From Dudresnaya verticillata (taxonomy: Eukaryota), in contig OZ374558.1 of NCBI GenBank assembly GCA_977862235.1, positions 2,542,001 to 2,606,000 on the forward strand: 64,000 bases of DNA. The letters are read 5' to 3'. Below are positions 1,016 through 53,710 of this stretch, piece after piece. The translations under genes were made by a program, and so were the position numbers. A model generated the notes under the pieces. It made no database searches. It was not told the origin of the DNA and saw only the letters and a list, made by a program, of their open reading frames with translations. How positions within the stretch are numbered: the stretch's first letter is position 1; the number at the start of each line of letters is the position of its first letter.

Positions 1016-1050
1016 GCGAACGTCCCGGTCGCGGGTTACGGATTTACGAA

Positions 1051-1560
1051 TTGGCGTGGCCTGCGTGCAAACGATGCAATACGAAGCGCGGAATTTCGAT
1101 ATGGTCCGACCGCGACAAACCGAGAGTTGCGAATCGCGATTGACTTGGACCTCGGCGTCCGCGAAGACCTCGGAAATCACGGAGACAAAACGGATTCGTA
1201 ATCGCAGCTTCGATTCTCGAATGGCGTGCGTGCGAGTGCAGCGATGCAATACGGTGCACGGAATTTCGATATGGTCCGACCGCGACAAACCGAGAGTTGC
1301 GAATCGCGATTGACTTGGACCTCGGCGTCCGCGAAGACCTCGGGAATCACGGAGACAAAACGGATTCGTAATCGTAGCTTCGGTTCTCGAATGGCGTGCG
1401 TGCGAGTGCAGCGATGCAATACGGTGCACGGAATTTCGATACGGTCCGACCGCGACAAACCGAGAGTTGCGAATCGCGATTGACTTGGACCTCGGAGTCC
1501 GCGAAGACCTCGGGAATCACGGAGACAAAACGGATTCGTAATCGCAGCTTCGGTTCTCGA
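1051..1560. repeat. Tandem repeat, 3 x 170 bp, in the A1 3' non-coding region
   Basis: Units start at 1051, 1221 and 1391 and are near identical. Confidence 0.95.
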
Positions 1561-2428
1561 ATGGCGGGGTCATCGAAACTTCGGAATTTCACGTGCACGG
1601 CCCCCTCCTCAAGACGAAGGCGTCCGCGGCAACGTGCTTGGGGGGGTTGCGGATACGCGCTCCTCGGAGAGCTGTGTGGGTGTTGCGATGATCGCGCAGG
1701 GCAGGTAGCGTGAGCTCCGGGGTTGTTGCGGGCGGGCGAGCTGCTTCGGGGGCGCATCGGTGCGGGCGGAACGTATGCGTAATGGGGCGCCGAGGCCATG
1801 CGAGAGACTCCGTGGTCGTTGCGAAGGTGCGTCGGAACAGGTGAGCTCCGTGTCGCAAGTGAGGCGCGGGTGCGAAGTCGAAGTGCGCGTGGCGGGTGGC
1901 ATCGGCCTCGAAGTATGACGTCAGGCGCGTATGAAAGTTACGTATAGGTCAGCGTGTCCGTCCGCCGCGGTGTCAGCTCCTGTAATGCGAGTGCCGCGGT
2001 GCAACCGGGTGCGCGCGGTGCGCCTTTGTCGAATATCACGAAGCGCGTGGGACGCAGTGTGTGTCCACCGCCGCAGCGGTGGGCGCACCCGTCGCGAAAC
2101 GGAACGCTTCCGACTACGTGAGAAGCGACTTCGTGTGGGCATCGGCGCTTGCGGACACGGTGATGCGGAGTGGGCTTCGTGATGCCACCGAGGGCTGCGT
2201 TGTCATGTGCGGGGTGGCGGCCATCTGCTCCGAGGCATCCGTGTGTGTCGGGGCTGTGGTCGTGCGCGACGAAGGTGCGTCGTGAAATACGGAGTCGAGT
2301 CACGAAGGTGGGCCGCGATGTCGAGTAGCACGAAGTTGGGCCGCGATGTGCGCCGAGCGGCACTGGGCGATCGGATGCTCCGAGGCAATCGGAATGAGCA
2401 GCTTCGTAGTCAGCACGTGGTGGGAGCG

Positions 2429-4332
2429 TTAATCGTGCGACGAATTGCGGGGCACGAAGTCGGGGCCACGGAACCACTCGGGGTCCCAGTCGGAGAGCCA
2501 TTCGTGGGCGAGTAGCACGGGATCACGCGGGTCCGCTTGGCTTCGAAGCCTTGCGAAGTAGCGCGAAACGAGTTCTTCGGGCACGTGCGTACGAGGTTCC
2601 CACGTAGGCGTCGCGTAGCCGTCCCACTTGATACGAAACACGAATTTCCCGTCTTCGTCGGTCGAGTGATCGAGGATGCGATCGACAACGTATTCGGGGC
2701 CTTCGTTGACCTTTTCCGCAATGTCTTCGGGTCGCGTAATCGACGGTCGCGTATTCGTAGGGGGTGGCGCGTAGATGCAGCGGTCCGTGGAGACGCGTTC
2801 AACGAGGCCCTTGCGATCGATCACGAGTGTACGCGTATCGTTGAAGAGCACTTTGTACGTCCCCTCCGCGGGGGATTTCAACTTCGGAAGTTTCGTTTTC
2901 CCATCGTGGGTATCGAGGAACACGTAGTCTCCGGGTTTGACGCGGCTCTTCGTGTGGCGGATGCGCTTATCGAAGTCGCGTTTGTAACGATTCTGAACTC
3001 GCTGTTTGGCCGATGCTTTCGGGAGCGATGTTTCACGGTGAACTCGGGCGGCGGTCGCGATAAAACGAGATTGAACGGAGTTGTCTTCGTAGACCGATGA
3101 ACGTGGCATTTGTACGAATACGTTAACGCGGAAACGTAGCGGTCCCAATCGTTTTGGTGGTCGTTCACGTAGTTACGAAGCATCGCGAGGATAGTGCGGT
3201 TATAGCGTTCGGTTTGTCCATTCGTTTGCGGATGATACACGGAAGTGAATACGTTCGATAACCCGAGTAAGCGACAGACGCCCTGAAAGAACTTCGAAGT
3301 AAACTGTTTCCCGTTATCCGAGAGCACCGAGGCTGGCGGTCCGTACTTGAATATCCAAACTTCGCAAAAGGCAACGGCCACGTGATACGCGGTTATGACT
3401 CGTAGTGTGGCCACCTGGGTCAACTTCGTAAAGCGATCCGTAATCACGAGAATGAACTTGCGTCCGGATTTCGTTCGTGGCAACGGGCCTAAGATGTCAA
3501 TCGCGACCGATTCGAGTGGGCGCGTAGCGGGGAAGAGCTTCAAGCGATGAAGATTCCTTCGGAGACGGATTCGATTCCTTGCGCAATGTTTGCAGTTACG
3601 AACCGTGGATGCGATATCGGCTGCCATGTAAGGCCAGTAATACGTTTCACGAAGTGAGTAGAACATACGATTTTGCCCCGGGTGGCCAGCTAGTAACGAA
3701 TGATGCGCCAGCGTGAGCAAGCGAGGTCGGAGCGTCTCGGGCAATACGATTTGCGTTAGCTTCGGACTCGTTGGGTGCGTTCGTCGCAGGAGACCGTCTC
3801 CATCTTCGTGAAAGAGACTATCCTTCGTTTTCGATTGTCGTGATTGCACCGTTTGGCAGAACGAATCAATACGTTGTCCTTCGAGGATTTCGGTTACCAT
3901 AATCGGCGCAGGGAGGTCCACGGGTCTCACGTCGGTGAGGTCACTCGGTTCTTCGTTGGGGTCAATTCGATAAAGGTCAAACGGATCATCGTCATCGATA
4001 TCGTCCCATAAGTCGCAGTCATCGTAGACATCCGTTTGGCCTGCGTATTCATCACGTAGTTCTGCGTCGTGTTCATGGTCGCAGCCTTCGTAGCACGTAT
4101 GATTTGGGGTTCGGAACCCGTGGTGACCTCCGTGGGTCGTGGCGTAGTGCCTGCTCGATGTACGCGTGTCGCGGGTGTAGTCTTTCGCGTAGAGTCGTGG
4201 CGAATCGCGGTGGGCTTCGATTGACGTTTGCGGGATCGCGTAGTAATGAGAACCGGGTCTCTTTCGTTTTCGATGGTTTTCGTAATGTCGTTGCGGAAAC
4301 GTTCTTCGTTCTGCGCTGCGATTTGATCCGAG
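2429..4332 (-). pseudogene. Integrase plus chromodomain of A1, frameshifted by a 73-bp deletion near 3005
   Basis: HHCC zinc motif, IDILGP and SDNG core, EYVVDRILDH..WDGY..TWEP chromodomain. Offset to A2 changes from 31315 to 31242 across the deletion. Confidence 0.92.
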
Positions 4333-6947
4333 TCAAACGTAGGAACTTCGTCGTCGATTGCGGGTTGTTCGCGAAGCGGAAGTAGCAATCGCGAGAGGGC
4401 ATCGGGAATCTGGTGGACGCGACCGGGGCGATACACGATTTCGAAGTCGAATTCGGCTAAGCGAAGCCTCCATCGCTTGAGTCGCCCGGACGAATCGGTA
4501 AGGGAAAGAAGCCATCGGAGAGCATCGTCGTCCGTACGCACGGTGAGCCGGGTCCCTTCGATATACGGACGCAACGAAGTAACCGCCCATACGACTGCGT
4601 AGCATTCGCGCTCGGTTGCGGAGTAGTTCTTCTCGGCATCGTTTAACGAATACGACCAGTAGCCCACGGGTTGGAATTCTTCGTTATCTTGCTCCTGTAG
4701 CAACGCGCATCCGAGTTGATACGCAGACGTGTCCGTATCGATAATGTAACGTTTCCCGAGTTGCGGTAACCGGAGTATCGGCGGTGACACGAGCTTCCGT
4801 TTGAGCGTTTCGAATGCGGTAACCTGATCCTCCGTGGGATTCTCGTAGTCGGGATCCGCGTCCTTTCGCGTCAGGTTCGTCAATGGTCGCGCAATTTTCG
4901 CGAAGTCTTTCACGAATCTTCGGTATACGTTACACGCGCCAAGGAACGAACGGACTTGCGTGAGTGTCTTCGGGAACTTCGCGTATCGGAATGCTTCGGA
5001 GCTCTTCTCGGCCATATTCAGCTTCCCCGGGGAAATTACGTGTCCGAGATAGTCGACTCGCTTTCGGAAAAGGAAGCACTTCTTCATCTTGAGCGAAACT
5101 CCGGAGTTACGAAGTAGCGTGAGAACTTGATCGAGATGCGCGATGTGTTCACGAAGATTCGCGGAGAAAACGATCACGTCATCGAGGTAAACGAGACAGC
5201 ACTGCCAACGGACTCCGGATAGAATAATGTCGAGTGCGCGTTGAAACGTAGCGGGCGCGTTTTTCAATCCGAAGGGCATACGAAGATAACGATACGTTCC
5301 GAGAAACGAAGTAGACGTAGTCTTATCGCGGTCTTCCGGGGCAACCGGAATCTGCCAGTACCCGCTGTTACAATCGAGTGTCGAGAAAATCGAAGCGTCT
5401 CCGAGTGAATCGATACAATCTTCCATCCGGGGAAGTGGGTACGCGTCGGATAGCGTCTTCGTATTGAGTCTTCGGTAATCTACGCAAAAACGAAGTGTTC
5501 CGTCTTTCTTCGGTGCGAGGACTACGGGGGACGCCCACTCCGAGGTGGCTGGTTCGATTACTCCGGCTTCGAGCATACTGTCGATTTCGTTACGCACGAT
5601 TTCACGTATTGCGTGCCCTTGACGATAGGGCATCGAACGGATAGGTCGAGTACCGGGTTGTAGATCGATCCGATGCTCCGTGGCTGCGATCGTTCCGAGG
5701 TCTCCGTTCCACATCGATTCGTGCTTACGTAGCATCTCGAGGACCTCGTTTCGCATAGTTTCATCGGGTATGTTCGAAAGGTCTACGCGTTCTTCCCAAT
5801 CGCGGGAACTCGAATTGGCTTCTGCTGCTGCAGTCGCGGCACCCTTCGTGAGCGGTTTTTCCTTCGTGGATACGGATTCTTCGGGTGACTTCGAGTCGTC
5901 GTGCTCACGTAGCGTAGAGATGTTGAGCACCTTGGCAAACGAATCCGCGACTTCGCGATCGGGTGTCAGAATCGCGAGAGGGTTTCGAGCTGCGTATCCG
6001 ATGACGGTTCCCTTCGGTAGAGCTCGAGGCTTATCCGTGAAGTTCGCCATCAACACCGAAAACTCGCGATTCGGACTGACTTCGTGTATCCCGTTCGTTA
6101 ACCGTACTCCGTGTCGGTGTTGTAACGAAGGCTTCGGTTCGATATGAATTAGTCCGAGTGCTTCCGAGGTCACGGTGACTAGCTTCTGCGAATAACTCGG
6201 TATGGTGACGCGGCGGTTCAAACGAATGGTACGGGTATCACGGTCCCAATCGTGGAGCTCGCGTTGGTGTCGCTTCGATAGCGTTTTCTCGAATTTCTGC
6301 TTCGGATTTTTCGAATTAGTGACGGGTGGAGCCGATCCAGCAATGCGGTTGATAATCGGAATCTTGCTTCCACTCTTCGTGATGAGCCTCCGTGGGCTGA
6401 GCTCGATGCTTCGTAAATGCGCGTCCATCCACGAAGTTCCAAGGAGAACGTCGACCGCGAGTTTCTCCGCAACCACGAAGGGTACGCGGTATCGAACGTT
6501 CCCGAGGCGGACTGTCAGGTAAACGATACCATCGAGTCGCAACGGGGTGCGATCAGCGGACGCGAGCCTCGGAGCTGATTCCATCGTGGACGCGTTCGCT
6601 TCCCAACCGGTGGGTAACGCAGCCCGGGCTATTAAGTTGTAACCGGAACACGTATCGACTGCAATCGTATGCGGCGTCATTACGGAGGCATCGAGGCCAA
6701 TGGATCCGGTCACGAGGAAGATCTCCGAAGTCATTAAGCAAACGTATCCCTCGGTGGTAACTTCGGGTTCGGTCTTCGAGATCGGTTTCGTCTTCGAATT
6801 GTTTTCGCACGAAGCGTCTTTCGCGAGGACTCGACATCGCTTTCGGTCTCGTCGTCGTGCAGCGCGCTTCCTTCGCATCGTAGTGGCTCTCGGAATCGGA
6901 ATACGCGGTGTGTCTCGGGGAACGGATTTAGACGAAGTACGTGACAC
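3927..6947 (-). CDS. pol: A1 pol: protease, reverse transcriptase, RNase H
   Basis: VDTCSG protease, LRFCVDYRRLN, YLDD, RNase H DTS..ERE..RTD, IPDALSR. Confidence 0.93.
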   Translation of the reverse strand: MSRTSSKSVPRDTPRIPIPRATTMRRKRAARRRDRKRCRVLAKDASCENNSKTKPISKTEPEVTTEGYVCLMTSEIFLVTGSIGLDASVMTPHTIAVDTCSGYNLIARAALPTGWEANASTMESAPRLASADRTPLRLDGIVYLTVRLGNVRYRVPFVVAEKLAVDVLLGTSWMDAHLRSIELSPRRLITKSGSKIPIINRIAGSAPPVTNSKNPKQKFEKTLSKRHQRELHDWDRDTRTIRLNRRVTIPSYSQKLVTVTSEALGLIHIEPKPSLQHRHGVRLTNGIHEVSPNREFSVLMANFTDKPRALPKGTVIGYAARNPLAILTPDREVADSFAKVLNISTLREHDDSKSPEESVSTKEKPLTKGAATAAAEANSSSRDWEERVDLSNIPDETMRNEVLEMLRKHESMWNGDLGTIAATEHRIDLQPGTRPIRSMPYRQGHAIREIVRNEIDSMLEAGVIEPATSEWASPVVLAPKKDGTLRFCVDYRRLNTKTLSDAYPLPRMEDCIDSLGDASIFSTLDCNSGYWQIPVAPEDRDKTTSTSFLGTYRYLRMPFGLKNAPATFQRALDIILSGVRWQCCLVYLDDVIVFSANLREHIAHLDQVLTLLRNSGVSLKMKKCFLFRKRVDYLGHVISPGKLNMAEKSSEAFRYAKFPKTLTQVRSFLGACNVYRRFVKDFAKIARPLTNLTRKDADPDYENPTEDQVTAFETLKRKLVSPPILRLPQLGKRYIIDTDTSAYQLGCALLQEQDNEEFQPVGYWSYSLNDAEKNYSATERECYAVVWAVTSLRPYIEGTRLTVRTDDDALRWLLSLTDSSGRLKRWRLRLAEFDFEIVYRPGRVHQIPDALSRLLLPLREQPAIDDEVPTFDSDQIAAQNEERFRNDITKTIENERDPVLITTRSRKRQSKPTAIRHDSTRKTTPATRVHRAGTTPRPTEVTTGSEPQIIRATKAATMNTTQNYVMNTQAKRMSTMTATYGTISMTMIRLTFIELTPTKNRVTSPT

Positions 6948-6964
6948 AACGGGCGTCTTCGCCT

Positions 6965-9415
6965 TTACCCGTTTTCCGAACTCGAACTAGAATCCGAATT
7001 GCGAGCGTCCGCGTCCAATGGGGAGGTTGATCGATCACCTCTTCCGTTGTTCGCGGAGTCTTCGTAAGCCTCCGAGGGCAGGTTCGGGTGACTCGGCTCA
7101 ATCGCGTCAACGTTTTCACGGACTGCGAGAATCGGTTGACGGCCCGGGGCCTGCGCGTGTCTCGGATTGCGGAGGACGGTCGGTGGTCCTCGACGCTCGA
7201 AGCTGACTTGACGCTTGGCTCGGTCCCTCGGGTAGCGCGTATCGCCTTGACGAAGATCTCGGTTTACGCGATTGTCACGTGATCCTCGGGAGTCTTGTCC
7301 ACGGTGACCTCGATTGTCAACGGACGCGAACGAATTCCCTCTTGATGCGCCGCGATTCACGAAGTTATTACGCGTATACGGTCTCGTCTCGAGTTGGTAC
7401 AAGTAGTTCTGGTACGCGCAATAGAGTTGTTGCTCCTTCGTGAGATACGGACACGAATACATGAGGTGAACAATTTCGCGACAGAACCAACACGGCCACG
7501 CATCTTGATTCTTCGGTATCATCGAACGCGCCATCTCGATTTGCTCCGGGGTCATCGGGGGGACACGCGCGGGTACGAAACGCTCGATGCGACTCGTGAG
7601 ATCTAACGTATCGTCCACGGAGACCGTTGTCGAAGTAGTCGGTGTAGCGGATGTGGACCCGGTTCCTGAACAAATCATCATCACGGCCATTTGCGGGTCT
7701 TCGTTCATCGGGTACTCGTATTCACTCCCGGGAGTGTCGCAAGCTTCGATAAGCATCGTGCGTCCGGGCGCTTGGCGATTCTTCGGGTACGTAGGAGACA
7801 CTCGGTTCTTCGAATCACGCGACTGTTGGGCCGCGGTGTCACGTAGTTCGCGAGCTCGGAATGTCGTGCCTTCGGCTTGCGCGATTCGTTGCACGCTCAT
7901 AAAATTCTTCTGCTCGGACAGCGGTAAACGGCGAACCTGGTCGGCCACGATAGGATACGTAGTAGGTAGTAATCCACGAATAAACTGGTGCGTTAACGAA
8001 GAGTCATCGTAGACACCGGAGCAGACATCCGCGTAGCCTTGCAAACGAGTCGCAAACTCCATCTCGGTTTCATCGGACTTCTGCTTCGCGGTTATCACGC
8101 GATCGTGTGCGTCTGCGATTACGTCTTCCGTGAGAAATCGCTGTAGTAACACGTTCACGATCGCGGACCAGCAAACCGGGTTGCCCGTACGAACGCCTCC
8201 GAAGGCATAGTTTTGATACACCTTGAGCGCGGTCTCATCGAGAAACCACGAAATCGTACGAACTGCTGCTCCTTCGGTGAGCCGACTCCGTTCAGCGCTT
8301 GTCGAATATCACGAAGAAATGCGAGAACCTTAATCGGGTCGCGTCCCGTGAACTTCTCGAGTCTCGGCATCATCGAACGCATGCGTGAAACGGTTTTCGA
8401 CGTGTTACCTCGGAATACTTCGTGTTGATTATCCCGAGGTGACGAATTCGTGAGTCGATACGATCGATAGCTTACGGCCCGCGCGAATTCGGGGATGAGC
8501 GTCGGTATCGGTTCGACGCCCGGCTCGAGCGGTCCCCAGTGCCAGAACGATGACACGGGTCCCGCGAGCGCTAACGGATTTTCTGTTACGGGTCCTCCGG
8601 GGGACATCGGTGGTTGCAGCGAATCTCGGAATACTGCGGGGTTGATACGGGGGTTGTCGGAGGCATCGGTTGCCTGATTCGATAAAGCGTGCGGGGACGG
8701 ATTCGGATACGTGTTTTTCGGTAACGTAGATTGGGCACCCGGGCCTTGCACGGGTTGAACTAGCGGCGAATTGCGGGGGTCAGGACGGGCTTCGGAATGA
8801 TCTTCGCGACTTCGAGACTTCGGTAACGCTGCGGACACGATGTCACGAATTGCGTTCAACTGTTCCTCGGAGAATGCGTGCGAGCTGCGAACGGGAAGCG
8901 AGTGACTCGCCTTGCCCACGGGGGCGGATACGTTGCGCTCGAGCACGAGAAACCGATTGCTGACTCCCGAGACGAGATCCCGTAGACTGTCGAGTGAGTC
9001 TTCGATCCTACGGACCTTGCCAGCGCGGAGATTGTTGAACTCTTCGTGAACTCGATTGTGCGTATTACGAATCGAAAGCTGCGTGATACGGTACGCAGTA
9101 GAAAGCGCATCGATGACCTCTTCGTAGAGTAAACGTAATTCGGAACCGGAGACGTGCTTCATCGAGAAGAGTCGATCGACGGTATCCGAGGGAACGATTT
9201 CCAACGGAGTGTACGTATACGAGAGGTCGGACTGGCTACCGTGAGCCTGCGAACGCGAGTCTGTGCGAAGATCGGGTACCGTTATTCGTGAAGCGCGAGT
9301 GCGAGAAAAACGGTTCTCGGTCACTCGCGTTCGAGTCGAACAACGGGAGCTCCGGAATCGGTACGTCATCGGGTTTCGGTACCGGCGAATCGGGACGACT
9401 CGGAGCGTGAGACAT
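6965..9415 (-). pseudogene. gag: A1 gag, frameshifted near 8283 and near 9305
   Basis: Colinear with the intact 814-aa gag of A2; CCHC knuckle CWFCREIVHLMYSC. Confidence 0.9.
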
Positions 9416-9467
9416 CGTGTCTCGGATAGAAACGAATTACGAATAAATGCGAAACTTCGGGACCACG

Positions 9468-9485
9468 TTCTAGGTCGGGAGACCA
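9468..9485 (-). promoter_or_regulatory. Primer binding site, tRNA-Tyr-like
   Basis: TGGTCTCCCGACCTAGAA 1 nt after the LTR. Its complement ends G72-A73-CCA, matching the eukaryotic tRNA-Tyr identity C1:G72/A73. Confidence 0.8.
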
Positions 9486-9486
9486 G

Positions 9487-10339
9487 TGTGGTATAACGAA
9501 AACGAAGTCCACGGAGACGCGGGGAAGTCTCGCACTGTAAGCGAATGGCCTCGGAGCCAGCGAATGGCCTCGTAGCCTAACGAAGAAACGAAAACGGGGT
9601 GGTAGCGTGGTAGAGCGGAGCGGCTAACACGAAGGACCACGGTGTCAACGTATTCGTGTGCGGAAGGGAGAACTCGAGCGATCGATCACCGGGGATAACT
9701 CCGGGTGCGCGAGGCTATCGAAAGTGAGGCTCGACCGTATCCGCAGTCACGAAGACAAAGACACCGAACTCGAAGAAACAGCGTTTACCGAAGACTCCGA
9801 GGTCCGGGCGCTAGTCGCTTATCGGGAACCCTCGGAGGTTGTGCCAGACGACTGGCTACTAAGTAGTACTACGGGAGCACGAATGCGCGTCAACGCGGGA
9901 GACGTTTTCGTACTCGAATGATTCGTAACGGCCTCGGTGCCAACGAACGGTCGCCTCACGTATGGTGGCGGTTGCGAAGTGCGCCAGCGATGCATACGGA
10001 GGTGCGCGTGTCTCGTGGGCCGCGGTGCCGTTACGCGCGGGAAACAACGGGAAAGTCACGAAGGTGTCAGCGATTTCGTATCGGGTGCGCACTGTAATGC
10101 GAATGCCATCGTGGCGCGCGCGATCACGAAGTCGGATCGGGATTCATCCGGAGGTGTCAGCGATTTCGTATCACGTGCGTGCTGTAATGCGTATGCCATC
10201 GTGGCGCGCGCGCGGTATGCGCTCTGTAATACGTGTGCCATCGTCGCGTGCGCATTCACGAAGTCACTTTGAAATTCGTATTTCTCGGTTCTTTTCACGT
10301 AGATCACGGAGTCATTTCACGGATAGCGTCTATACCACA
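9487..10339 (-). repeat. 5' LTR of A1
   Basis: Repeat of 146-998, adjacent to the PBS. Confidence 0.97.
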
Positions 10340-10647
10340 GGAGTCTTCGGTAAACGCCTGTTTCTTCGAGTTCGGTGTCTTCGTCTTCGTGACCGCGGAT
10401 AGGGTCGAGCCTCGCTTTCGATAGCCCCGCGCACCCGGAGTCATCCCCGGTGATCGATTGCTCGAGTTCTCCCTTCCGCACATGAATACGTTGACACCGT
10501 GGTCCTTCGTTTTTGTCGCTCTGCTCTACCACGCTACCACACCTTTTCGTTTCTCCGTTAGGCTACGAGGCCATTCGTTAGGCTCCGAGGCCATTTCTTA
10601 CAGTGCGAGACTTCCCCGCGTCACCGTGGACTTCGTTATACTACACA
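10340..10647 (+). repeat. Right part of the older inverted family-A LTR
   Basis: Diverged reverse complement of LTR 146-457; ends ..CGTTATACTACACA; no PBS follows. Confidence 0.9.
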
Positions 10648-10743
10648 ATAATTCCCGAGACGGTCCCCGTTGACGTAACCTTGTTTCATCGTATATGTTC
10701 TCTATGCGACCCTCAGTCAGTTGCAAATAGAATTGAGGCGGTT

Positions 10744-11284
10744 TTATCGCCTATCTGTTCCTTTACAACCCTTGTAAAGCTTCCATGAGTCGACAACACA
10801 AATGCCAAAAAGTGTTGTGTTGACGCGTGTTGCCCAACCCTTCACCTCAATTTTGTTCTCAAGAGCAACGTCATCCTTTCGGCACCTGTTGCTTATTTCA
10901 AGCTGAGCACAGATGTGTAGTAGTAGGACTGACATACAGTTGGAATCTTGACTGTGCCACAATGACTTCCAATTGCGTCAAACCAGTCGCTCCATTTCTA
11001 GTACGCCAGCGCTCACGGTAGACTGGCGTAGTGTTGACTGATTTTGATTCTGTACTGATAAAGTAGCGTCGATTTCTGTCAACCCACATTAGTGCCATCA
11101 TTTCAAGGTTTCCAGAAGATGAGACAAGAGAAACATGATCACCCATTTTCGACACCTCAATCTTGGAGAGATAATCCATGGGATACCTTTTGGTAGATGT
11201 TTTGAAAACTCCCGTAAATCGTAGCCCTCTCTGATGGAGTGCTTCAGCTCCCTCCACAGAAGCAAAGAAAGAATCTGCACAAAC
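10744..11284 (-). pseudogene. piggyBac-like DDD transposase fragment
   Basis: VCADSFFAS..GLRFTGVFK, MWVDRNRRYFIST and NRCRKDDVALENK..FGICVVDSW across two frames; cut by LTR B1. Confidence 0.75.
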
Positions 11285-12120
11285 TGTGGCATAGCTGTAA
11301 GACCAGGTGTACCACGCACACGCAGCTGTAAGACCAGCTGCGCCACGTGTGCACCGCTGTGCGCATGCTGTCAGCCGGTGGCGCCGAAGCCCCGCTGAAC
11401 TGTAAGGAAGTGCGCTGTGGCGCCCGCGCGTGCACGTGTACGCGTGTGACACTGAAACTCCCATGTAATTTCTACGTTTATTTTTGTGTAGTGTACAGTA
11501 CTGTCAAGTGTAAGCGGCGGTCGAATGCCCGGCTGTCCCGCGCGTCGTGTGCACGCACTCCGGCGTAGAGCCGTTGAGTGCGTGACACGCGCGCGCGTAC
11601 TCCGGCGTCGAGCCGTTGAGTACGTGTGGACCGTTCTGCCCACGCGCGCCCCGGGTAACCGTTACCCGTACGCGTCGACGCGTGTCGGGGCGCGCCGGCG
11701 CACCTCCCGGGTTGGTGCCGTGGCAGGCCCTGTAGTCGATTTAGTAGTCGCCCCTCTGAGCTTGAGAAAACAAGGCAGGCCAGCCTACGCCAGGCTTGCC
11801 CCTTTCTGCTTTGGGTTTCTTTCCCAGTCCTTCACCCTACGGCTTCCCTCTTTCCCTAGCCGCCTAGGCTTTCCTTTTCCTTTCCCTACCGTCGGCTTCG
11901 TTCCGCCCCACGACGGGGACGCAGGGATCCGGCCGCTGCCGCCTGCGTACGGTACGCCCCGTGTGCGCTCAGGCTTCGACGCCGTTGATCCGCGACCGTG
12001 GATGGCGCGCGCGGCCGACACCACTACTCTACCCCCACCGCTACCACCCTTCGACGGGTCTGGATGCGACTACGAGACCAGCCGCGCTAGACGTCAGTTC
12101 GACCAGACGTCTATGCCACA
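11285..12120 (+). repeat. 5' LTR of gypsy element B (B1)
   Basis: TGTGGCATAG..CTATGCCACA, 836 bp, followed by the PBS and gag. Confidence 0.93.
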
Positions 12121-12121
12121 C

Positions 12122-12139
12122 TGGTCTCCCGACCTAGAA
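12122..12139 (+). promoter_or_regulatory. PBS of element B
   Basis: TGGTCTCCCGACCTAGAA, identical to the family-A PBS. Confidence 0.85.
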
Positions 12140-12266
12140 GTCGCAGAAGACCCTATCACCTCTCGCGTCGGCGCGATCGAGGCCAACAATGCCGCCGCTA
12201 CCTACTTCGGCCGGTGCTGGTTCGGCAGACGCCGCGGTAGGTGAAGCCGGCGGTCGACGCACTTCC

Positions 12267-12517
12267 ATGCTGAGTAACGTCGGCGTCTCAGGAGCTCCCT
12301 TAGAGGAACCGCGCATCGAGCGCAGGGCGGCTATAGCCAAGGCCCTAGGAGGGACAACGGTCTCTGCGACCGACCTCGAGTTAGTCCACGAGGAGACGAT
12401 GGACTCACTCTCGGAAGTGTATACCACCTTCATGGCCTCAGTCGCAGAAGCGCGGGCACAAGTTCAGCGTGACCTGGAGTCGCTTCGACGCCGAACCCTC
12501 GCCTCCGTCGAGGAAGG
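12267..12517 (+). pseudogene. gag: Element B gag, N-terminal fragment
   Basis: VSATDLELVHEETMDSLSEVY resembles A gag VSGSELRLLYEEVIDALSTAY. Confidence 0.75.
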
Positions 12518-13292
12518 TGTAGTATAGCTGGCAGCACACTATCAGCAGCGGCTGTAAGGTATGCTGGCAGCCCCGTACTGTAATGGTGCGCACGATGACG
12601 CCCGCTGGCGAGTCGTGGTTGGGCAGCGTGCCCTTAGTTTTGTCGTTGAATTAGTAGCGGTCGACCGCATTGCTGCCGGCAGCGGCCGCGCGCCGTGCCG
12701 CACACGGCGCGCCCCTGTGACGCTCTCCGGCATCGAGCCGTTGAGAGGGCCGCTGCCCGTTACGCCCCGCGCGCGCCCACGGATAACCGTTACCCGGACG
12801 TGTCGACACGTGTATGGGCGCGCGCTCGCACACCTCCCGCGTTGGTGTTGTGGGGCGCACCTACTGTAGAAGTAGTCATAGTGCACATAGTGTAGGGTAT
12901 TTAAGACCGTCGGCCATCGACGGCTCAGTAAACCGGGCAAGCAACAGCTCGCGCTGAAGCTTGCCCCCAGCCTTTTCGGGTTCGATCCCTTTGCCTTACG
13001 CCAGCGGGCGGTTTCCCTTTTTCCCCTTGCCTCGCTAGGCTTTCCCCTTTTGCTTTTGCTTTTCGTCGGCTTCGTGCCGCCCTTCGACAGGGACGCTGGG
13101 ATCCGGCCGCTGCCTACCCGCGTACGGTACGCCCCGTGCGCGCTCCGGCATCGACGCCGTCGATCCGCACCTGCGGGGCGCACGCGGCCGACACCGCTCT
13201 ACCAACCCCAACAGCTACCCATCGACGGGTCTGTGTGGCGGCTTCGGACAAGCAAGTATCAGACGTCGGATCGACCCGACGTCTATACCACA
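12518..13292 (+). repeat. LTR C (B-related), no TSD
   Basis: TGTAGTATAG..CTATACCACA; 3' half homologous to LTR B; flanks GAAGG and CGCAG do not match. Confidence 0.85.
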
Positions 13293-13357
13293 CGCAGGGG
13301 AGCCGAAGGGCAACACAATACACACCCTCGCATCCGCTATCCATTCCTGAAACGACA

Positions 13358-16300
13358 TCAAGACTGTTTCGTCGCAGAAGAATCGGCTGGCACATCCTCA
13401 GCAGCGCCCTCGGCGGACTCACGCAACGCCTCTTCGTAGAGGTCGTCCTCCGCCGTCGACGGTACACTCACGGCAGGAGCAGGGGCGGACCGCAAGGGCC
13501 GTGCCACTGCAACTGCCGGAGTGACCGCAACAGGCGCCGCAGGCGAAAGGGGCGACTTATCAGCCGCCTTTGGCGTCGTTGCGACAATATCCGCCACAGG
13601 CGATGAAGCAACAATACCCGCCATAGGCGCAGAGCTCAAGCTATCATTCGCCTTAGGCGCAACCCCAGTCCCATCCGCTTTAGGGCGCAGTCAACGACTC
13701 ATCAACCGCCTTTGGCGTAAGTTCAGAAACCGCCTCGATCGACGTCGCACCTTCACTCGCCTTCGGCGTTGTTAACTCTACACTCGTCACTGACGAAGGA
13801 GCACCTGGCCCCTTTTGAGCCGTCGATGACGCCATAGCAGCATTTGCTTCGCTCACTGAAGGCGGTACAGTCATATTTACGTCTTTAGACGCTGGACCAT
13901 TCGCCTTAGGCGACGACGGCTTTCCTGCCACACCGTCATTCGACGCAGAGCCTACGACAATAGCCGATTTCGGCACGGACGCACCCTGAGGCGGAACCGC
14001 AGCAGACAAAGATTGGCTCACCCACTCTGTGGGCAAGCCGCTCAAACCGCTAGTAGCGATGCCGGCAGCCTGTAACAACGTGAAGACCGTACGGCGCTGT
14101 TCTTCGGTCCATACCGACACGCTGGGAGCCTTCCCTGAACCGTCTATGACGTTCGATGCTCTACCTGCTGCCATTGCGGACAGGGGTGGCTCTGACACTG
14201 GCACCGCCAAAATGACGTCACCCTCGTCGTCCGCAACGGGCGCCGAAAGGTCCAAGACCGCAACCGTGGCTACGCCGGTTGGCATCGCACTCGCCGCAAG
14301 AGGCTCCGTGGGCAACGTCGTAGACGGAACAGCCGCTTCAGCGGAAGACTCCATCGCCATAGGCGTAGCCATAGCCGTTCCCGACGAGTTAACCGGTCCG
14401 TCGTTGGCGTGCAGAGCATCCTCTTCCGCCATTAAGGCGCTCAAGTGAGGAGGAAAGTCACCGAAAAAGTCGCAGGTCTTACGCAAACCGCACGGGTGAT
14501 TACCCGGCGTGAAGCGATCGGTCTTGCGATGGCGTTCCGCAATGTTCTTCGTCGTACGACGCGTTGTCCAAGGGTTGAACCAAATACAATCGCCACAGGC
14601 GGAATGAGTACGACTCATCGCGTAACGCGGACGATTCGCCTCAAGGCGGTTGTTCGCTAACGGCACGGCAACCAGGTCGTTCCAATCGATCTCATCCGCA
14701 ATCGCGCGCAGGTCCCAGAACTCCTCGGAGTTCCTGGAACCACCAAATATTTCGACCAAGTCGAGGCTACCGAGATGGGCGACCACACGCGGTGGTAGAT
14801 GATACATACGGAAGGTATCATACACCTCCCATAACCAAGCATACGCCACGTTGGCGACCCACTCGGTGTAGAACACGATCCAATACCTGGAATACGGGTC
14901 TGTCATCAGCTTGGAGCCAAGATACGTGACACACAGGGGGGGCTCTGCTGCGAGACCTTCGCATATCTCGAATTCACGCCATACAGGCGGCACCTTCACA
15001 AAACAGTAAGGTAACTTACTACGCTCAATGCGGTCGACCTGTATGTCCTGGTACGGCACAAACACGCCTGCGGCATCGACGTCAGGTCGAACTGACGTCT
15101 AGCGCGGCTGGTCTCGTAGTCGCACCCAGACCCGTCGAAGGGTGGTAGCGGTGGTGGTAGAGCGGTGGTGTCAGCCGCGCGCGCCATCCACGGTCGCGGA
15201 TCAACGGCGTCGAAGCCTGAGCGCGCACGGGGCGTACCGTACGCGGGCGGCAGCGGCCGGATTCCTGCGTTCCCGTCGTGGGGCGGCACGAAGCCGACGG
15301 TATGGAAAGGAAAAGGAAAGCCTAGGCGGCTAGGGAAAGAGGGGAAGCCGTAGGGCAAAGGACTGGGAAAGAAACCCAAAGCAGAAAGGGGCAAGCCTGG
15401 CGTAGGCTGGCTTTCCTGGTTTACTCAAGCCCAGATGGGCGACTACTAAATATACTACAGGGTCTGCGGCGGCACCAACCCGAGAGGTGCGCCGGCGCGC
15501 CCCAACACGCGTCGACGCGTACGGATAACGGTAACCCGGGGGCGCGCGTGGGCGAAACGGTCCACACGTACTCAACGGCTCGACGCCCGAATGCGCGCGC
15601 GCGTGTCACGCACTCAACGGCTCTGCGCCGGAGTGCGTGCGCACGGGGCGCAGGACAGCAGGGCGTTCGACCGCCGCTTACACTAGACGGTGCTGTAAAC
15701 TACACGACAATAAACGTAGAAATTACATGGGAGTTTCAGTGTCACACGCGTACACGTGCACGCGCGGGCACCACCGCGCAACTCCTTACAGTTCAGCGGG
15801 GCTTCGGCGCCACCGGCTGACAGCGTGCGCACAGCAGTGCACACGTGGCGCAGCTGGTCTTACAGCTGCGCGTGCGTGGCACAGCTGGTCTTACAGCTAT
15901 GCCACAACGCCCTTTTGGCGACGCGTTTCACATTCCCAACGGATACAATGCTCCCAGAAGAACGTAACCGTCCGATGCAGATAACGAAAATCCGCTTTTA
16001 AGCGTACACCTAGGAGGTAAGCCTCTTGAAAAATGCGAGGCTCGATTGACACGCTCACGTGCTTCAGCGACAACGTCCCGAGACGAGCACCATATTCGGC
16101 CTCGCCGACTGTACGGTATTGCCCTGCATCGAAATTGAAGAGGGGCGGCGTTAACGTCGACCCAGGGTAACGCGTGAAGCGTCGATATACGTCTGAGACG
16201 AACTGCGCGTGGACGTCCGCACGCGACTGTCCCGCTCACACCCAAAGCAACCCCGCAGGAACCGCACAGCGCAACTTCCACTCTAACGTCCAGAAGACGC

Positions 16301-16553
16301 CAAGGGGCAGGCCCCCTGGCAAGAAACCGCTAGTAGCGTAATGAGCGACCAATTCTTCCTCTCGCAAAGCCTCCTGGTCAAACCAGGGGGCCCGCGCGAA
16401 GAAATGCGCGTGATCGCGAGGATTCTTACCGACAAAGTCGACGGTGACGCGTACACCGGCGCGGCCGAGGGCGCCGCCACCTGCTTGAATGTCGCCATAA
16501 CGTCGAAGACGAAAATATGTTCGCGCCGCTGGCGATGAGTACACAAACGTCAA
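13358..16553 (-). pseudogene. Long accessory ORF of unknown function, antisense to element D and split by solo LTR B2
   Basis: Removing B2 plus one TSD copy fuses ..WECETRRQK|GVFVPYQD.. in frame; one stop at 16236-16238 and a frameshift near 13685. Confidence 0.8.
15069..15906 (-). mobile_element. Solo LTR B2
   Basis: Inverted copy of 11285-12120; TSD ACGCC. Confidence 0.95.
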
Positions 16554-16871
16554 AGACGACTCGTATCCGGCGCCACTGGTAAAAGGTTCTCGAAGCGTGC
16601 GTCAAAGACGATTACTGTCCAACGCCACTGGCGAAAACCTTACAACTGCACGTCAGCGAAGATTCAGTTGCTACGCCCCAGGCGATGCACAAAGCAGAAC
16701 GCCAGCAGGCGAGGGAATCTGAACGACGTCAACGAAGGGGATCGAGAGGCGCCACAGGCGATGATGTCGGCGTAGTGCAAGGGCACGCGGTGCACAACAC
16801 GAGCGAGGTTTCGCACGGCATAGCCAAAGTCGCAAGACGCGCGCGCAGACACGCCAAGACGAAGCGCAGGA

Positions 16872-17487
16872 TGTGGTGCAAATCCACTGCTGAAAACAAC
16901 AACGGAGGACACACCTCGGGCGTTCGGGACCCGCGGGTAGCGGTAGTAGGGGGTAGTGTGGTAGAGCGTGGGGAGTAGCCCCGTAGCGCGACTGTAAAAC
17001 GCCACGAGACGAAAGAAAAAGGGAGGAACCCTAAAATAGCGGAAAAGCAAAGGAAAAAGGGGGAAACAGGGTTCTGTATGGTGAAGAAGGGGTACGCACG
17101 CACTGGAGTCCCTCCTGAGAACGAAGGTGTCGGTCAAGGGTAGGGAGGTGTGTGTCGTAGAGCCCGAGCTTGGCTTGTTTACTGAATGAGGGCGCGCCCC
17201 TAGCTCTAATATACTATGTACACACGGGTGCGCCGCAAATGAAGTGGGGAAGGGAGCGTGCCATTTGGAGATTCGTGACACGCGAAAAGGGATTAACTAA
17301 AATTAACTAAAATTAAGGGTGACTGACAGTGCGTACAGTAGCGAAGATCCGCCACCATAATCTGCCACCCGTTGCCGCCGGCGCGCAGGACTTACAGGCC
17401 GGGCGCCTGACAGGGGCAGTCCCCAAGTGCATTGCTGGCGGGGAGTCAGCGATTTGAGGCAAATGAGCACCGGTGAATTGCACCACA
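16872..17487 (-). mobile_element. Solo LTR G
   Basis: TGTGGTGCAA..TTGCACCACA; TSD CAGGA; shares short motifs with LTRs D and E. Confidence 0.92.
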
Positions 17488-17564
17488 CAGGAACGGTCAA
17501 AGACGAAGGCAAGCGCGCAGCACCAGGTTGAGGGTCGGACGTGTTTGCGTTTTGGAGGGGGTCG

Positions 17565-18476
17565 CGTGGTGCAAGGGGGGGTGAGCCCCTTTTTCGCTGA
17601 AAGCGGAGCAAAAAATACGTCGACCGACGGAGAAACCGCCACCGGCGCTCACCACCGCCGTTGGCGCACGAACACGTCATCGACGGCTCACTGGGTCGCA
17701 CGCACACGCTGCGCGCCGCGCGTCATGCGGGCACTGTACGGTGATGGGCCGACATGGCGCCCCGGGGTACTGTAACACGGATCTAGATGGGATCCAGATC
17801 CGGTATCCAGATTGGCTATCTGGATCGCCTACGCTGTAATGTACGCGCCTGTAAGGCTGCGAGTGTTCGCATTGCTGGCCGGGATCCGGATGGGGATCAG
17901 GATCGGACAAGTACTGGATTAGATCAAGGGCGCACACTCTACAGTTCGCGCGCGCGCACGGCTGTAAGGCCCACGCGTCCACGTGTGTGTGTAAGCGGCC
18001 ACGCAGGGGGTCGCGCGGCAACCTTTCAGGCGGGTGGCTGCATACGATGGGTGATCTGTCAGACGCACCTCGGGACGACACGTGTCCCGAGTTCTCGCGC
18101 TACGCACCCGCACCGCCGCCGCCGCACCGTCGTGCTATACTTAGGTAAGCCGTCCCAGACGTAGCAGTAAACGCCCGGGCAAGCCGGCCTTGGTCCAGAC
18201 TTCCCCGTTCCGCACGCGCGTACCCTCCGCTACCGATGCCTACGGCCTAAGCGTCTACCTCCCGTGCTCTTCCACGATCAACCACCGTCGTTGACGTGTT
18301 TCCTTTTTGTTCTCTTTTGTTCTTGGTTTCCGCCTCGGGCGTTTACAGTCCGCCCAAAGCGATTCAACCGCTCTACCACAAGCCGCCCTAGGCGAGGTTA
18401 CTCACCGCTACTGGTGTCGGTACCCATCGAGCCCCGAACTGCTCGGCGGTGTTTCGTCCAGGACGTTTGCACCACA
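17565..18476 (+). repeat. 3' LTR D1
   Basis: CGTGGTGCAA..TTGCACCACA, homologous to 19330-20241. Confidence 0.88.
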
Positions 18477-19329
18477 GTCTAGACGACATAGGACAGCGGG
18501 AAAATCAGCAGCAAGTCTGCAATGGCAACACCGCCAAGATTGTAAGCAGGATGAATTCTTTCATGCCGCGGCTAGATCGCTACGACGGCAAGGAGCCCAT
18601 CTGCGTGCTTGGCGTGCTTAGACAGCTACGCCAAGCCATCAACGGCGTCGGCCTGTAGGAAGGCGCAGCGACGGGAGTGGTGTCCTGGTTCCTAGACGGA
18701 ACGGCATCCCAGGTGTATTGGAGTCACCTTTTCTCAGGGGTCCGGAAGACTAGTCGCGGCACCCCCCGTGCTGGGCCTCGGTGGTCAAAACCCTCGTCGA
18801 GAGGTTCTCCACCGATGACGTGATCGCCAACGCGCACGACCGACTGACCACCGCCCGGCAGCGGGACGCCGGGTCAGAACTCGACTTCGCCTCTCGTCTA
18901 CAGGGCTACGCAGATGACTGTGCCGGCGTCTACTCCGACGAGAACCTGACGCACCAGTTCCTGCGTGGTCTGCTTCCGAGCACCCGACCCGCAGTGGTGG
19001 AGAAGGTAAGGCAGATGCCGATGGTCGAGCAGACCAACTTCAGTACCGTTCGTCGGATCGCCCACAGTGAGGGCACAACCTACCGTGCCCGCATGGAAAA
19101 GGCATCGAAAACGGCTATCGCTTCGGGGCCCGGTAGGGGGAGCAGTTCGGAAAGCGGCCGCACGCGGCTTATCGAGGCGCCATACACCGCCGATACGGAA
19201 TCGGCCTTCGACGGCCCGATATTGGTGGCGCCCGATGACGATGGTTTCGAACCCGGCATGGTCGTGCCCGCGCTTTCGACAGTCGGGGCGGCGCAAGCCG
19301 AGGAGACGCTCGACATATCAGGTTGCATC

Positions 19330-20241
19330 TGTAGTGCCAGGGGGGGTCCCCCGTTTTCGCTTTCAAGCGGGTTGATATGCAGCGTCTACCGACGGACGAC
19401 CGCCAACGGCGCGCTCAACCCGCCCGCGGCGCAAACACGTCACCGACGCATGCCGCTGGCCACTTGGGCCAGAACGGCTCGCTGGGCGTGCAGACCGCAC
19501 GCCTGAACCCGGCCACTGTACGGCGCCACGCGTACGCGCATGGCGCAGTGGCGGGAACGTTCGCTGTAAGCGTGGCCCGAATCCGGATCCAATCGGGATC
19601 CCACATCGGGATCCCACATCGGGATCAAGGGGTGTAAGGCACGCGCCTGTAAGCCTGGCGCATCCGCATCGCTGGCCCGAATCCGGACTGGATCGGGATT
19701 GGTGCGGATCGAGATCGCTCGCGCCATGGGGCGCATGCGGCTGTAAGGAAGTAATCCACGTGTAGGTGTAAGGACTCGAACGGGGAAGCTACGCGTGATC
19801 TGTCAGGGGCGCGGCTGCATGACGGACGGATCTGTCAGACGCGCCTCGGGACAACACGTGTCCCGAGTTCCCGCGTGACGCGTACACCCGCGTCGCCGCC
19901 GCTAGGTAATTCTATACTTAGTTGATCCGTCTCAGAGGTCACAGTAAACACCGGCAAGCCGGCCTTGGTCCAGACTTCCCCGTTCAGCACACGCGTACCC
20001 TACCGCTGCCTACGGCTAAGCGTCTACCTCCCGTGCTTCCACGTCTCTACCCGTCTTCGACGTGTTTCCTTTTTGTTTCTTCTGTTCTTCCTTTCCGCCT
20101 CGGGCGTTTACAGTCCGCCCAAGGCGAGTCAATTGCTCTACCACAAGTCGCCCAAGGCGAGGCTACTCACCACCAAGGGCGTCGCTACCCATCGAGCCCC
20201 GAAATGCTCGGCGGTGTTCCGTCAACGACGTTTGCACTACA
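19330..20241 (+). mobile_element. Solo LTR D2
   Basis: TGTAGTGCCA..TTGCACTACA; TSD GCATC. Confidence 0.95.
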
Positions 20242-20278
20242 GCATCTACGCAGTCCTGCCGAAGACGAGCCCTCCGCT

Positions 20279-20946
20279 TGTGGTGCAGTGCCCGGAACCT
20301 GTTTTTGCGCAGACGCCCGCTCACATACACGCGCACACGGATGCGCACTCATCCACGTTTACACGCGCGACACGCGCGCCGAACATATCCGAGGGAGCCC
20401 TCGATCGGTTGCGCGCCAGCAAGGCGCACCCTTCGTTTACACTGATTTACAGTGCGATAGTAGTATTTCTACGCTAGATATTTTTGCGCGATATTTTAGT
20501 GAGCTCGCGGTGCGCGCGCATGCCAAGTGTCAGGCGCACTGCGCCAGACACGCGCGTGCACCTCCCGCGGGGGATACGTAGTATCGGGGTGAACCCCTCT
20601 CACAGTAAAGCGCCAAGTTGGTCTCTGAACCTGAGGATACCCCCGAATTTGCTTCCGGTGTCACCACCACACGGAGCGTGGGCTACGTACCCTGTTTTGA
20701 GTCCCTCTTCAGCGCCATCCTACCGGCGTGTATCGCCGTCGCTACATTTACGTGCACTACGGCACTTCAGGTGGATCGGGGGTTTACAGTCGACCCCGGT
20801 CACACTATACCCGGGGCACACCCCGTGTCTCGGCTGCTCTACAACCCCACAGGCGTCCGTCTCACCGCGTGGGGCCTGCTACCTAACCGCGCGAGACCGC
20901 GTCGAACACGGTTGGGGCAATTCCCGTTTTTGGGTGTTGCACTACA
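20279..20946 (+). mobile_element. Solo LTR E
   Basis: TGTGGTGCAG..TTGCACTACA; TSD CCGCT. Confidence 0.93.
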
Positions 20947-21699
20947 CCGCTCACACCGGTGCAAGAGGCAATAGCCCGCACTGTAACCCCTGATCGACAA
21001 GGGTGGTACATATGCTGGTTCTGCCGAGAACGCGGGCACATAATGTACTCGTGCCCGTTCCTGACAAAGGAACAGCAGTTGTACTGCGCGTATACGAACT
21101 GAAACCATAGACTGGAGACGCAGCCGCACGCGCGCAACAACTTGCAGCAGCTCATCGACGAGCGCATGGCGGCAGGCGCCAAGGCAAGTTACCCCGCAAG
21201 ACGTTTCGACGCGCAGCGGGGTGGGGACCGATGCTTCGACGCGAGAGGTCTCCTGCAGCGCTTCGACGCGCAAAGGTATCGCGGGGAGCCGCGACGGTAC
21301 CACGGGGATCGTCGAGATCCGCGCCGCGAATACCGAAGGGCAGACGTCCCGCGGTTCCTCACTCGCGACAAGCGGGTCGGGTTTGACGACCGAGCCGGTC
21401 GTCAACCTCGGGCGTCGACGCCCTCGAGGCCCAACCCGCAGCGCGAACTGCTCCGAGCAGTGATGACCGTGCAGGAGCACACCGGGCTAGCAGCCGACGA
21501 GGCTCTTGCAGGCGCTCGACGCGCATAGAAAGGGCGAGTCCGCCCGGGGAGCAGGGCGGACAGCTCCAGCTCTTTTTTGACACGCCGCCGTGCATAGGCT
21601 CTGTTCATCGGGTGTGTGTGTGTGGCTTGACGCCATGGTTATGCAACAAGGTCAAAGCGAGTTTTTGCGGACGCATGCACTCAGCATCAAGGAGACGGC

Positions 21700-23225
21700 G
21701 TACAGAACGATGCTACAAGGTGAGACGACGAGCCGTGATGTTGGGGATGCACAGGCGGAGTGGTGCAAGAGGCATTGCTGGTGGTAGATAATAGGCGGAC
21801 TGAAGCTGAAATGGGATTCTGGGCGTCTCCTGAATTGGGGAGAAGGATGGGTTCGATTGGCTACCGTATTTCAGGATTGCAGAGCCAATCAACGCCGGCC
21901 AACACCGTACCGGCTGTTGTGCGAGCGCTTTTTGGACGGATTTCGGGCAGATAGAATTGACCCGCCGGCGGATTCTGGGAACTGCGCTGAGGGTGATGCC
22001 ACCCCGAAGAGCATGTGTCCGCGCATGCATTACGCTCGCTGAGACCCCAGCAGCCGCTCCGCGCCGCCGCCCTGCCGGGTACGCAACGTGGATCACAAAA
22101 CCAGTGGCCGCGCGCTAGTGCACGCCATGACGCAGCAGTTGGTCTAAGCGCTGCGCCGTCGATACTTCACCGGGATTGCGAGCAGGCCGTTGGGACTGGT
22201 GAGGGGAGCTCCATGGGGAGCTCCATGGCCGAGGTAAAACGTGCAGTTCCATAAAACATGTGCCGTTCGTCGGCTCTACGGCTTGGCGCCATTGTGACGG
22301 GGCGCGGCAAGATCCTGGATCCGGTGGTGAGCTGGAGGGGAAGCGGCGGCCTGGCGCAGAGACTGAGAGAGATGGGCCTTTATCGGATGTGGTCAAAATA
22401 CTGTCGAGACAGATCCCGAGAACTTGCAAGCGCCCTGACGGTGGTCTGGGCGGTCCAAGCGAACGCCCTGCGAAGACTAGATTTTGAGTGCGATGAGTTG
22501 CGGAGATGTAGGACTGATTCCCTAAATCTTTCGTGAAGAATGAACGGTACTGAGAATACGGGACGGGACTGCGGCAGCAGGGCTTTGCTTGTTCAGTGCT
22601 AGAAGACATGTTCTACTTGTGTATTGGAGAGAACGAATTTCGGTGGTGGGTGTTGTTGCGGGAGGGGAATTTCGATGAGATCATGAGGTGATGCTGCCTG
22701 CTCTGTTCGGGTCTGGAGCTCAGAAGAATGGATGAAGATCTGGGAAAGGCTGACTAGGTGCGCATGGGTTTGCGGGTTTGGTGCGATGATCTGTTGGATT
22801 CGGCAGCATTCAGGCGTGGGGCTTGTTTAAAAGGGACGCGGAAGGGCTATCGCAAGAAACAAAAAAAAGAACCCTGTGCACGGGCATGTCTACGGATTGG
22901 AAGGGTTCTCTATTTGGACGAGGCGATGGGAAGGCGCAATTATGAAAGTGTGCGAAGCTCTTCATGTCCATACCTGTTGATATTGAGTCGGCATGGAAGA
23001 GCGCACGAGCTGGGGCATCTGAAGGACCGAGTTGTAGCAGACGGCTGTTCGGGAGACGCAGAATAAAAAAGGACATTTGGCCTAGACGATGTGGATGTGC
23101 CAGTCTACCTCGGGTTTCACATGTCCTAAGTGTTGGGCAGGCGTATGTTGTAAAGATTGGATTGTAGATATGCCAGTTGAACATGAACGAGTACTGGGTA
23201 GGTTCGAGTGTCAATCCAGGTGAGC
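21700..23225 (+). repeat. Degenerate dispersed repeat, copy 1 (unclassified; ends approximate)
   Basis: Shares blocks such as AACGCCCTGCGAAGACTAGATTTTGAGTGCGATG with ~44780-46230 (inverted) and ~48190-49225. Confidence 0.8.
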
Positions 23226-27982: not shown

Positions 27983-28367
27983 TGCACCCTGATTGCCTTG
28001 ATGGCACTGGAGCCAGGAATTTGATTAGTAAGACCTCACTCGTTGCTTGTCAGAGAATCTGGTGACAGAGAAGTTGGTTGTCGCTGGGAGCGCAGTTCAG
28101 ACCAAATATTCCATGCGGATTTGACGTCCATCCGCAGTCACACATTACAGTAGCAGTAGGTGTGTACCTGGATTGTGTCTCAACGAGTAGCCATCTCAGT
28201 ACTCGTAGTGTCGGGGATCTGGGCCCCTGGCGGTCCTGAAGTTGATAGCTCACACTCGTACCATTCATTTGACTGTAGGATTTGCCGAACGTTTGGAACC
28301 TTTTCCTTCTCGTGTCTCCCCGAACCCTTCGTGTGCACTTTGCGAGAACGTCTCGTCTGTACCGCGC

Positions 28368-28645: not shown

Positions 28646-28655
28646 CTCCCCTCTT

Positions 28656-38262: not shown

Positions 38263-38279
38263 AACGGGCGTCTTCGCCT

Positions 38280-53706: not shown

Positions 53707-53710
<4 letters not shown>

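Follow-up and report, generated by a model that had tools for sequence, protein, structure and literature searches.

An antisense gene in a nest of LTR retrotransposons

The window (the whole stretch of DNA analysed, 64,000 nucleotides) is a nest of LTR retrotransposons with 55–60% GC, in which Pfam recognizes gag, RT, RNase H, integrase and chromodomain both in element A (146-10339) and in a second copy of it (32720-41646). Between these two copies lies a region whose order from left to right is LTR B1 with its PBS and a gag-like start, LTR C, 65 bp, a minus-strand gene, solo LTR G, a purine tract, LTR E1 and a foreign gag. The GC content and intron-poor genes may point to a red seaweed as host.

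The minus-strand gene survives in pieces. Piece 1 (16239..16598) is an open frame closed by the single internal TGA (16238-16236), a stop that falls inside a conserved domain and through which homologues at two outside loci (L011 and L043) align. Piece 2 (15912..16235) is mid-domain and is followed by solo LTR B2 (15069..15906, minus strand), which is 93% identical to B1 and has the target duplication ACGCC. Piece 3 (13680..15068) holds the second half of the domain, an A/S/P-rich tail and a stop at 13682-13680. The conserved domain thus extends from ~16427 to ~14484, running across both the TGA and B2. The earlier note on this DNA had described 677 codons with one stop once B2 is discounted, and that count is exact: minus-strand 16553>15912 supplies 214 codons and 15068>13680 supplies 463 including the stop, with the register kept when 15069-15906 and one copy of ACGCC are discounted. 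Its A/S/P-rich tail with recurring PKA is likewise present, with five PKA counted in the tail. An aromatic-rich motif, YWIVFYTEWVANVAYAWLWEVYD, had been placed in an N-terminal domain; it is present at 14885-14817 and sits in the second half of the conserved domain. The proposed continuation past a frameshift exists as a frame of exactly 107 codons (13678>13358, 106 codons plus stop) and is probably the rest of the low-complexity tail, tied to the gene by composition and PKA motifs, not by homology.

The start of the gene is less regular. The open frame begins at 16598 without an ATG near 16553, and a candidate ATG at 16500 is in a different frame; the frame may therefore be broken a second time near 16440. 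The gene had been said to start near the polypurine tract; as the sequence stands it starts ~1 kb away because a second solo LTR, G, intervenes, and without G the distance falls to ~440-510 bp. Two candidate features here were rejected. An intron from GTAAGA at ~16432 that would skip the stop was ruled out because the stretch it would remove is conserved protein, and an LTR-type promoter motif at ~17200 (minus strand) was discarded as antisense promoter of the resident element, being part of the inserted LTR G. AAGACG occurs six times between 16501 and the purine tract, a weak signal, reached by 7 of 200 shuffles. The gene is conserved, and its copy in the window is dead.

To the right, solo LTR G (TGTGGTGCAA...TTGCACCACA; 16872..17487, minus strand, duplication CAGGA) lies between the gene start and a polypurine tract-like run (17550..17564, plus strand) that resembles the tract preceding the 3' LTR of element A and stands immediately before LTR E1 (17565..18476, plus strand). 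In the columns that align, E1 shares 82% identity with solo LTR E2 (19330-20241, duplication GCATC). A plus-strand gag of another element resumes right after E1 (18477..21141), split by E2 and by solo LTR H (20279-20946, duplication CCGCT). To the left, LTR B1 (11285-12120), its PBS and the gag-like start form a separate plus-strand element (11285..12517) that is truncated by LTR C (12518..13292, plus strand); the gag-like start weakly matches the gag of element A (E 0.001). LTR C is related to B1 and B2, and its flanks, GAAGG and CGCAG, differ.

We infer that 13293-18476 is the 3' end of an element, D, that has E1 as its 3' LTR, that D inserted into the gag at 18477..21141, and that LTR C marks the junction where the 5' LTR, gag and pol of D were lost, probably via recombination between two C-like LTRs. 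As those parts of D are missing from the window, where only the polypurine tract and 3' LTR side of its slot survives, the link of the gene to the 3' LTR rests on position. Whole-LTR likeness between E1 and the LTR of L011 was marginal (score 45, with shuffles reaching up to 38).

Several other features of the window were recorded. Element A has LTRs 99.8% identical and the duplication GGAGT, and lies inserted, head-on, within an LTR belonging to its own family (1-145, 10340-10645); its 3' region (999-2430), which is missing from the second copy (32720-41646), contains three 170-bp tandem repeats and a second polypurine tract-like run at ~1600. B1 inserted into a piggyBac-like transposase remnant (10650-11284; DDE_Tnp_1_7, E 1e-6). 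A distant gypsy element (28367-32857 and 41650-42676), which the second copy of element A interrupts, has an RT ~31% identical to the others and a chromo-shadow-like match after its integrase. An inverted pair of ~1.3 kb, 70% alike, occupies 21749-23063 and 44864-46168. Tandem 3.1-kb units, 99–100% alike, fill 51621-64000, each with a frame of 620–656 codons whose product has a signal-like start, an acidic stretch, Cys-rich repeats and no Pfam match. Near-identical PBSs occur in unrelated-looking LTR families (12122-12139 and 9466-9486 in the window, L011:10457-10476, and L043 near 3880), and a TATA-like box with CAGTAAA after it is common to several LTRs.

A large protein family

We compared the gene with 148 loci (80 metagenome and 68 viral) fetched by pol alignment. 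In local comparison eight of the 148 matched the piece left of B2, solely in the frame of the gene. Against two outside homologues the piece upstream of B2 gave z-scores of 14.8 and 13.8 in that frame and of –1.1 to 2.1 in the others. The alignment of locus L011 with the window copy runs collinearly through the stop and past the B2 junction, 107 of the 343 aligned residues being identical. In a first profile GC-rich subfamilies dominated, and the upstream pieces were missed; a profile built without the window rows matched the three pieces, each in its proper place (E 1e-16 at profile positions 2-63, E 1e-17 at 67-171 and E 2e-62 at 169-360), so that they tile one domain of ~370 residues. Profiles identified 24 of the 80 metagenome loci as carriers, leaving out the borderline L045 (E 0.0016), and gave no match on reversed decoys.

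An exhaustive phmmer scan recovered 273 clusters (at 50% identity) at E ≤ 0.001 and 104 at 1e-10, at least one of the listed matches (P0290) being a repeat artefact; the best match was 38% identical over 363 residues. The 61 full-domain members have a median layout of 60 + 369 + 138 residues. Twenty cluster look-ups returned no named member, and Pfam gave no family for the proteins. Searches with the window piece were blank for words in proteins (0 of 651 candidates) and for patterns in metagenome or viral contigs, as was a subfamily alignment search of prokaryote genomes and viral contigs; ESM Atlas gave no usable match, and PHROGs with NCBIfam gave two weak ones among 11 proteins. The RT relatives are almost all metagenome proteins. 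No title or abstract opening listed by searches of the open literature describes the family, and Repbase entries may already mark ORFs of this kind.

A shared slot in chromodomain Ty3/gypsy elements

In most carriers the gene directly follows integrase on the 3' side, with tandem or nested arrangements at L028, L046 and L055. It lies on the strand opposite pol in 23 of the 24 carriers, in agreement with the antisense orientation first described. At the 24th, L043, it is on the pol strand and probably belongs to an inverted element, since a reverse-oriented PBS follows the broken pol. One locus (L058) is a complete element with two LTRs 97% identical, the target duplication GTGCT and the gene inside; in three others (L034, L036 and L060) the gene lies between LTR pairs of 93–95%, and L017 has identical 127-nt ends that may be an assembly overlap. 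L011 shows gag, pol with chromodomain, a 749-aa antisense ORF, polypurine tract, LTR and PBS in that order, and its LTR ends and PBS resemble those in the window. In L011, L034, L036, L058 and L060 the gene thus stands between pol and the 3' LTR. Both chromodomain matches at the end of pol (L017, E 2e-5; L011, E 0.011) were under the Pfam cut-off.

That is, the homologues lie inside LTR elements, as expected of the uncharacterised accessory gene, antisense in the 3' region of Ty3/gypsy elements, that the earlier note had proposed; ordinary host genes away from such LTRs, which it had named as the contrary outcome, were not seen among these pol-fetched loci. The gene is almost certainly an element-borne antisense accessory gene.

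Its distribution is broad and incomplete. Of the loci, 28 extend at least 2.5 kb beyond integrase: the family is present in 17 of them, a second antisense family (below) in four and neither in seven; element A, near-intact, shows no trace of the gene or of the second family. The gene is therefore dispensable in cis. A quick version of the RT tree required nine changes for the carrier label, coded at a stage when L041, L046 and the second family had yet to be recognized.

Selection and rate of change

For dN/dS we took 19 segments of 18 loci, of which 30 pairs had at least 90 codons and at least 50% identity; the pairs are not independent, and they come from distant subfamilies, none of them D itself. 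A value near 1 had been named beforehand as grounds for abandoning the gene; dN/dS was 0.16–0.77 in all 30 pairs, with bootstrap upper limits below 1 in 25, the other five being close pairs (dS ≤ 0.15). The shadow frame on the other strand also had low values (0.31–0.87), above that of the gene in 27 pairs and not above it in three. Purifying selection on the gene is shown in these relatives. In the six most diverged pairs (dS > 0.7) dN/dS was 0.24–0.30 for the gene vs. 0.03–0.10 for RT, so the gene changes faster than the enzyme. This would fit a host-facing or sequence-specific factor, and change faster than RT is expected of nearly any non-catalytic protein. Gene and RT distances over 16 loci correlated at 0.70, a value reached in none of 5000 permutations, which shows shared descent at the clade level, not co-evolution.

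These data bear on two rival readings. Long spurious frames are common in GC-rich loci, and the frame might be a chance one, or the antisense RNA might be all that matters; against this stand the frame-specific homology, the 273 clusters, the dN/dS values and the confident predicted fold (below), and as regards protein coding the idea is already refuted and hardly credible otherwise. Alternatively, a captured host gene or a second mobile element could ride as a passenger that renders the retrotransposon no service. Fetching loci by way of pol could not reveal copies that lie outside elements, and the 273 clusters are of proteins stripped of their genomic surroundings, both of which leave room for a passenger. 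The slot and orientation are constant over several RT subclades, however, selection is purifying within elements, gene distances follow RT, and the family has neither named members nor a Pfam entry, so that we consider a passenger improbable. This is a new large protein family under selection, in an already known architectural slot.

Predicted structure and protein features

An AlphaFold2 model of one member (P0250, with 121 sequences; pLDDT 92.8, pTM 0.90) consists mainly of helices and long ordered loops, predicting one compact, mostly helical fold for the domain. Foldseek, a check suggested by the earlier note, found no match to it at E 0.001 in PDB or BFVD. A structure comparison placed two of 48,161 chains at Z ≥ 2 (best 2.2), and a second look none of 72; a 411-residue model can score weakly, and a blank fold search of this kind does not prove a new fold. 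The sole PDB sequence match, the UHRF1 tandem-Tudor (mouse/human, E 0.04-0.09), was rejected because that part of the model is helical.

Conservation falls mainly on Trp, Pro, Gly, Arg, Asp and Glu, and a conserved Cys/His set is absent; a W-x3-E-x-P-x-G stretch is kept across subfamilies, and several charged residues are near-invariant (in P0250 numbering R117 99%, D112 96%, E175 95%, E121 91% and E216 90%). These last, in a single large domain conserved over its full length, and the presence of E216 in 11 of 12 sequences checked across subfamilies, are what one would expect if the protein were a new-fold enzyme that erases a silencing mark or puts a host restriction factor out of action. Such an enzyme is nonetheless unlikely: besides the absence of a Cys/His set, none of the known catalytic motifs was found, the GC-rich subfamilies have lost E252, D267, R270 and E299, and many of the Arg, Asp and Glu positions may be structural salt bridges.

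The protein appears from its sequence to be soluble, without a conserved transmembrane segment: in a 19-residue hydropathy window the median best value was 1.39, and one of the 61 full-domain members exceeded 1.9. The domain is rich in Arg and Trp with a median net charge of +2, and the tails are mostly net acidic. Basic NLS-like motifs occurred in 8 of 53 flanks, vs. 4.1 expected. A two-helix tail module (modelled at pLDDT 90) was found in 47 of 76 tails, a partly circular count; in the window copy it is not significant, as 68 of 1000 shuffles score as well. It may resemble the SAP/LEM/HeH motif. One of 30 members matched Ish1 (E 0.044), and the best fold matches (Z up to 4.1) were unrelated helical pairs, with no SAP or LEM chain among the 50 matches listed and no Foldseek match.

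Comparison with known antisense and accessory genes

The slot itself has precedents. PMC7264820 and PMC11963269 describe antisense additional ORFs (aORF-3R) between pol and the 3' LTR, namely maize Grande gene23, rice RIRE2, Silene Retand with TRP28 and bean PvRetro13. Our family resembles these in slot, in orientation, in presence in most copies of a lineage, and in that both origin and function are obscure; PMC7264820 likewise treats as an open question what the antisense ORFs of LTR retrotransposons do and where they come from. The parallel with Retand/Tat elements drawn in the earlier note therefore holds for layout and not for lineage or content. Retand is a non-chromovirus of flowering plants whose ORFs mostly carry TRP28, whereas the relatives of the window gene have a chromodomain integrase and match neither TRP28/Transposase_28 nor the plant mobile domain in Pfam (TRP28/Transposase_28 was absent at E 0.05 in 50 members, at E 1 in 13 locus ORFs and at E 0.01 in the window pieces). 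Grande GENE23 is reported to be nuclear with its own promoter (PMC7264820), and TRP28 is predicted to bind DNA (PMC11963269).

The brtn gene of Botrytis Boty/BcGypsy1, named in PMC7264820 and 10.1101/2021.04.13.439636, is likewise an additional ORF in antisense, carried by a Ty3/gypsy element from outside plants, a likeness drawn here by description only; our family is large and diverse (273 clusters). The env and env-like ORFs of Ty3/gypsy, sense and with transmembrane segments according to PMC7264820, also add a third ORF to the stretch from pol to the 3' LTR, whereas the window gene family is antisense and soluble. It is unlike gag, pol and env, as had been claimed.

For function, the model is VANC, the anti-silencing proteins of VANDAL DNA transposons, with which MAIN/plant mobile domain proteins are related (PMC13547354). 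VANC is likewise a transposon-encoded, non-catalytic-looking accessory protein, of a dicot DNA transposon; its activity has been demonstrated, whereas that of our family would be ascribed by analogy. Single-sequence Pfam scans gave no match between VANC or the plant mobile domain and the family, and VANC21 (9LNK according to PMC13547354) was not among the fold matches listed, from a representative set that may not include it.

Proposed function

Our preferred reading, to which we give a probability of roughly 0.4, is that the window gene is a conserved antisense accessory gene of a chromodomain Ty3/gypsy lineage whose protein is a nuclear self-regulator acting against silencing. The protein would act in the nucleus, keeping element copies transcribed despite host silencing. 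As an antisense gene it would be transcribed on its own from the 3' end, and silencing of the 5' LTR need not then stop production of the protein. With its many Arg and Trp residues the domain would bind the DNA, RNA or chromatin of the element, and the acidic A/S/P-rich tail with its small two-helix module would bring in host factors, like VANC in VANDAL. In D, this would have been ended by the nested LTR insertions, the stop, the frameshift and the loss of the left part. A self-regulator fits best because the protein is soluble, is encoded by a separate antisense gene, has one folded domain with acidic disordered arms and changes faster than RT. Against it, the NLS signal is small, the charge is near neutral and Pfam scans recognized no DNA- or chromatin-binding domain. 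We hold the regulatory or anti-silencing mechanism itself, the latter raised as a possibility in the earlier note, tentatively and as somewhat less likely than not.

A cofactor of the life cycle, which would bind element RNA, Gag or integrase and aid export, particle assembly or nuclear entry in the manner of Rev or Vpr, shares several of these properties: the domain is soluble and rich in Arg and Trp, the NLS signal is weak and gene distances track the RT tree, and such a role is proposed for antisense ORFs in PMC7264820. Element A, with its nearly identical LTRs, lacks the gene, however, and the antisense position would uncouple the gene from gag-pol expression, which makes a cofactor rather unlikely.

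A second family of long antisense ORFs occupies the same slot at 12 loci of the RT clade next to element A (L002:8209-10740, L020:4300-6978, L018:9164-11440, L070, L031, L021, L023, L006, L008, L003, L071 and L079) and has no Pfam match. Profile-profile comparison with the window gene family was collinear and weak (P 0.057 over 106 columns; 21.9 vs. ≤20.7 in 21 decoys), and another profile gave P 0.0044 over 209 columns; judged from these alignments, the second family may be a far-diverged branch of the first. Returning to the self-regulator, a bolder form of it, which we think doubtful, is that a chromodomain Ty3/gypsy lineage, probably of red seaweeds, has had the antisense gene since its origin. 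The gene would then encode a new-fold, element-specific anti-silencing factor whose branches, the second family included, have diverged almost beyond recognition, an independently arisen equivalent of VANC for LTR retrotransposons.

To the known antisense genes the analysis adds a large family that is not part of the Retand lineage of flowering plants, that has intact members in nature and whose confidently modelled domain matched no structure in these searches; it is a ready target for structural and functional work. Without it, transposable element libraries and genome annotations would label its members hypothetical host genes.
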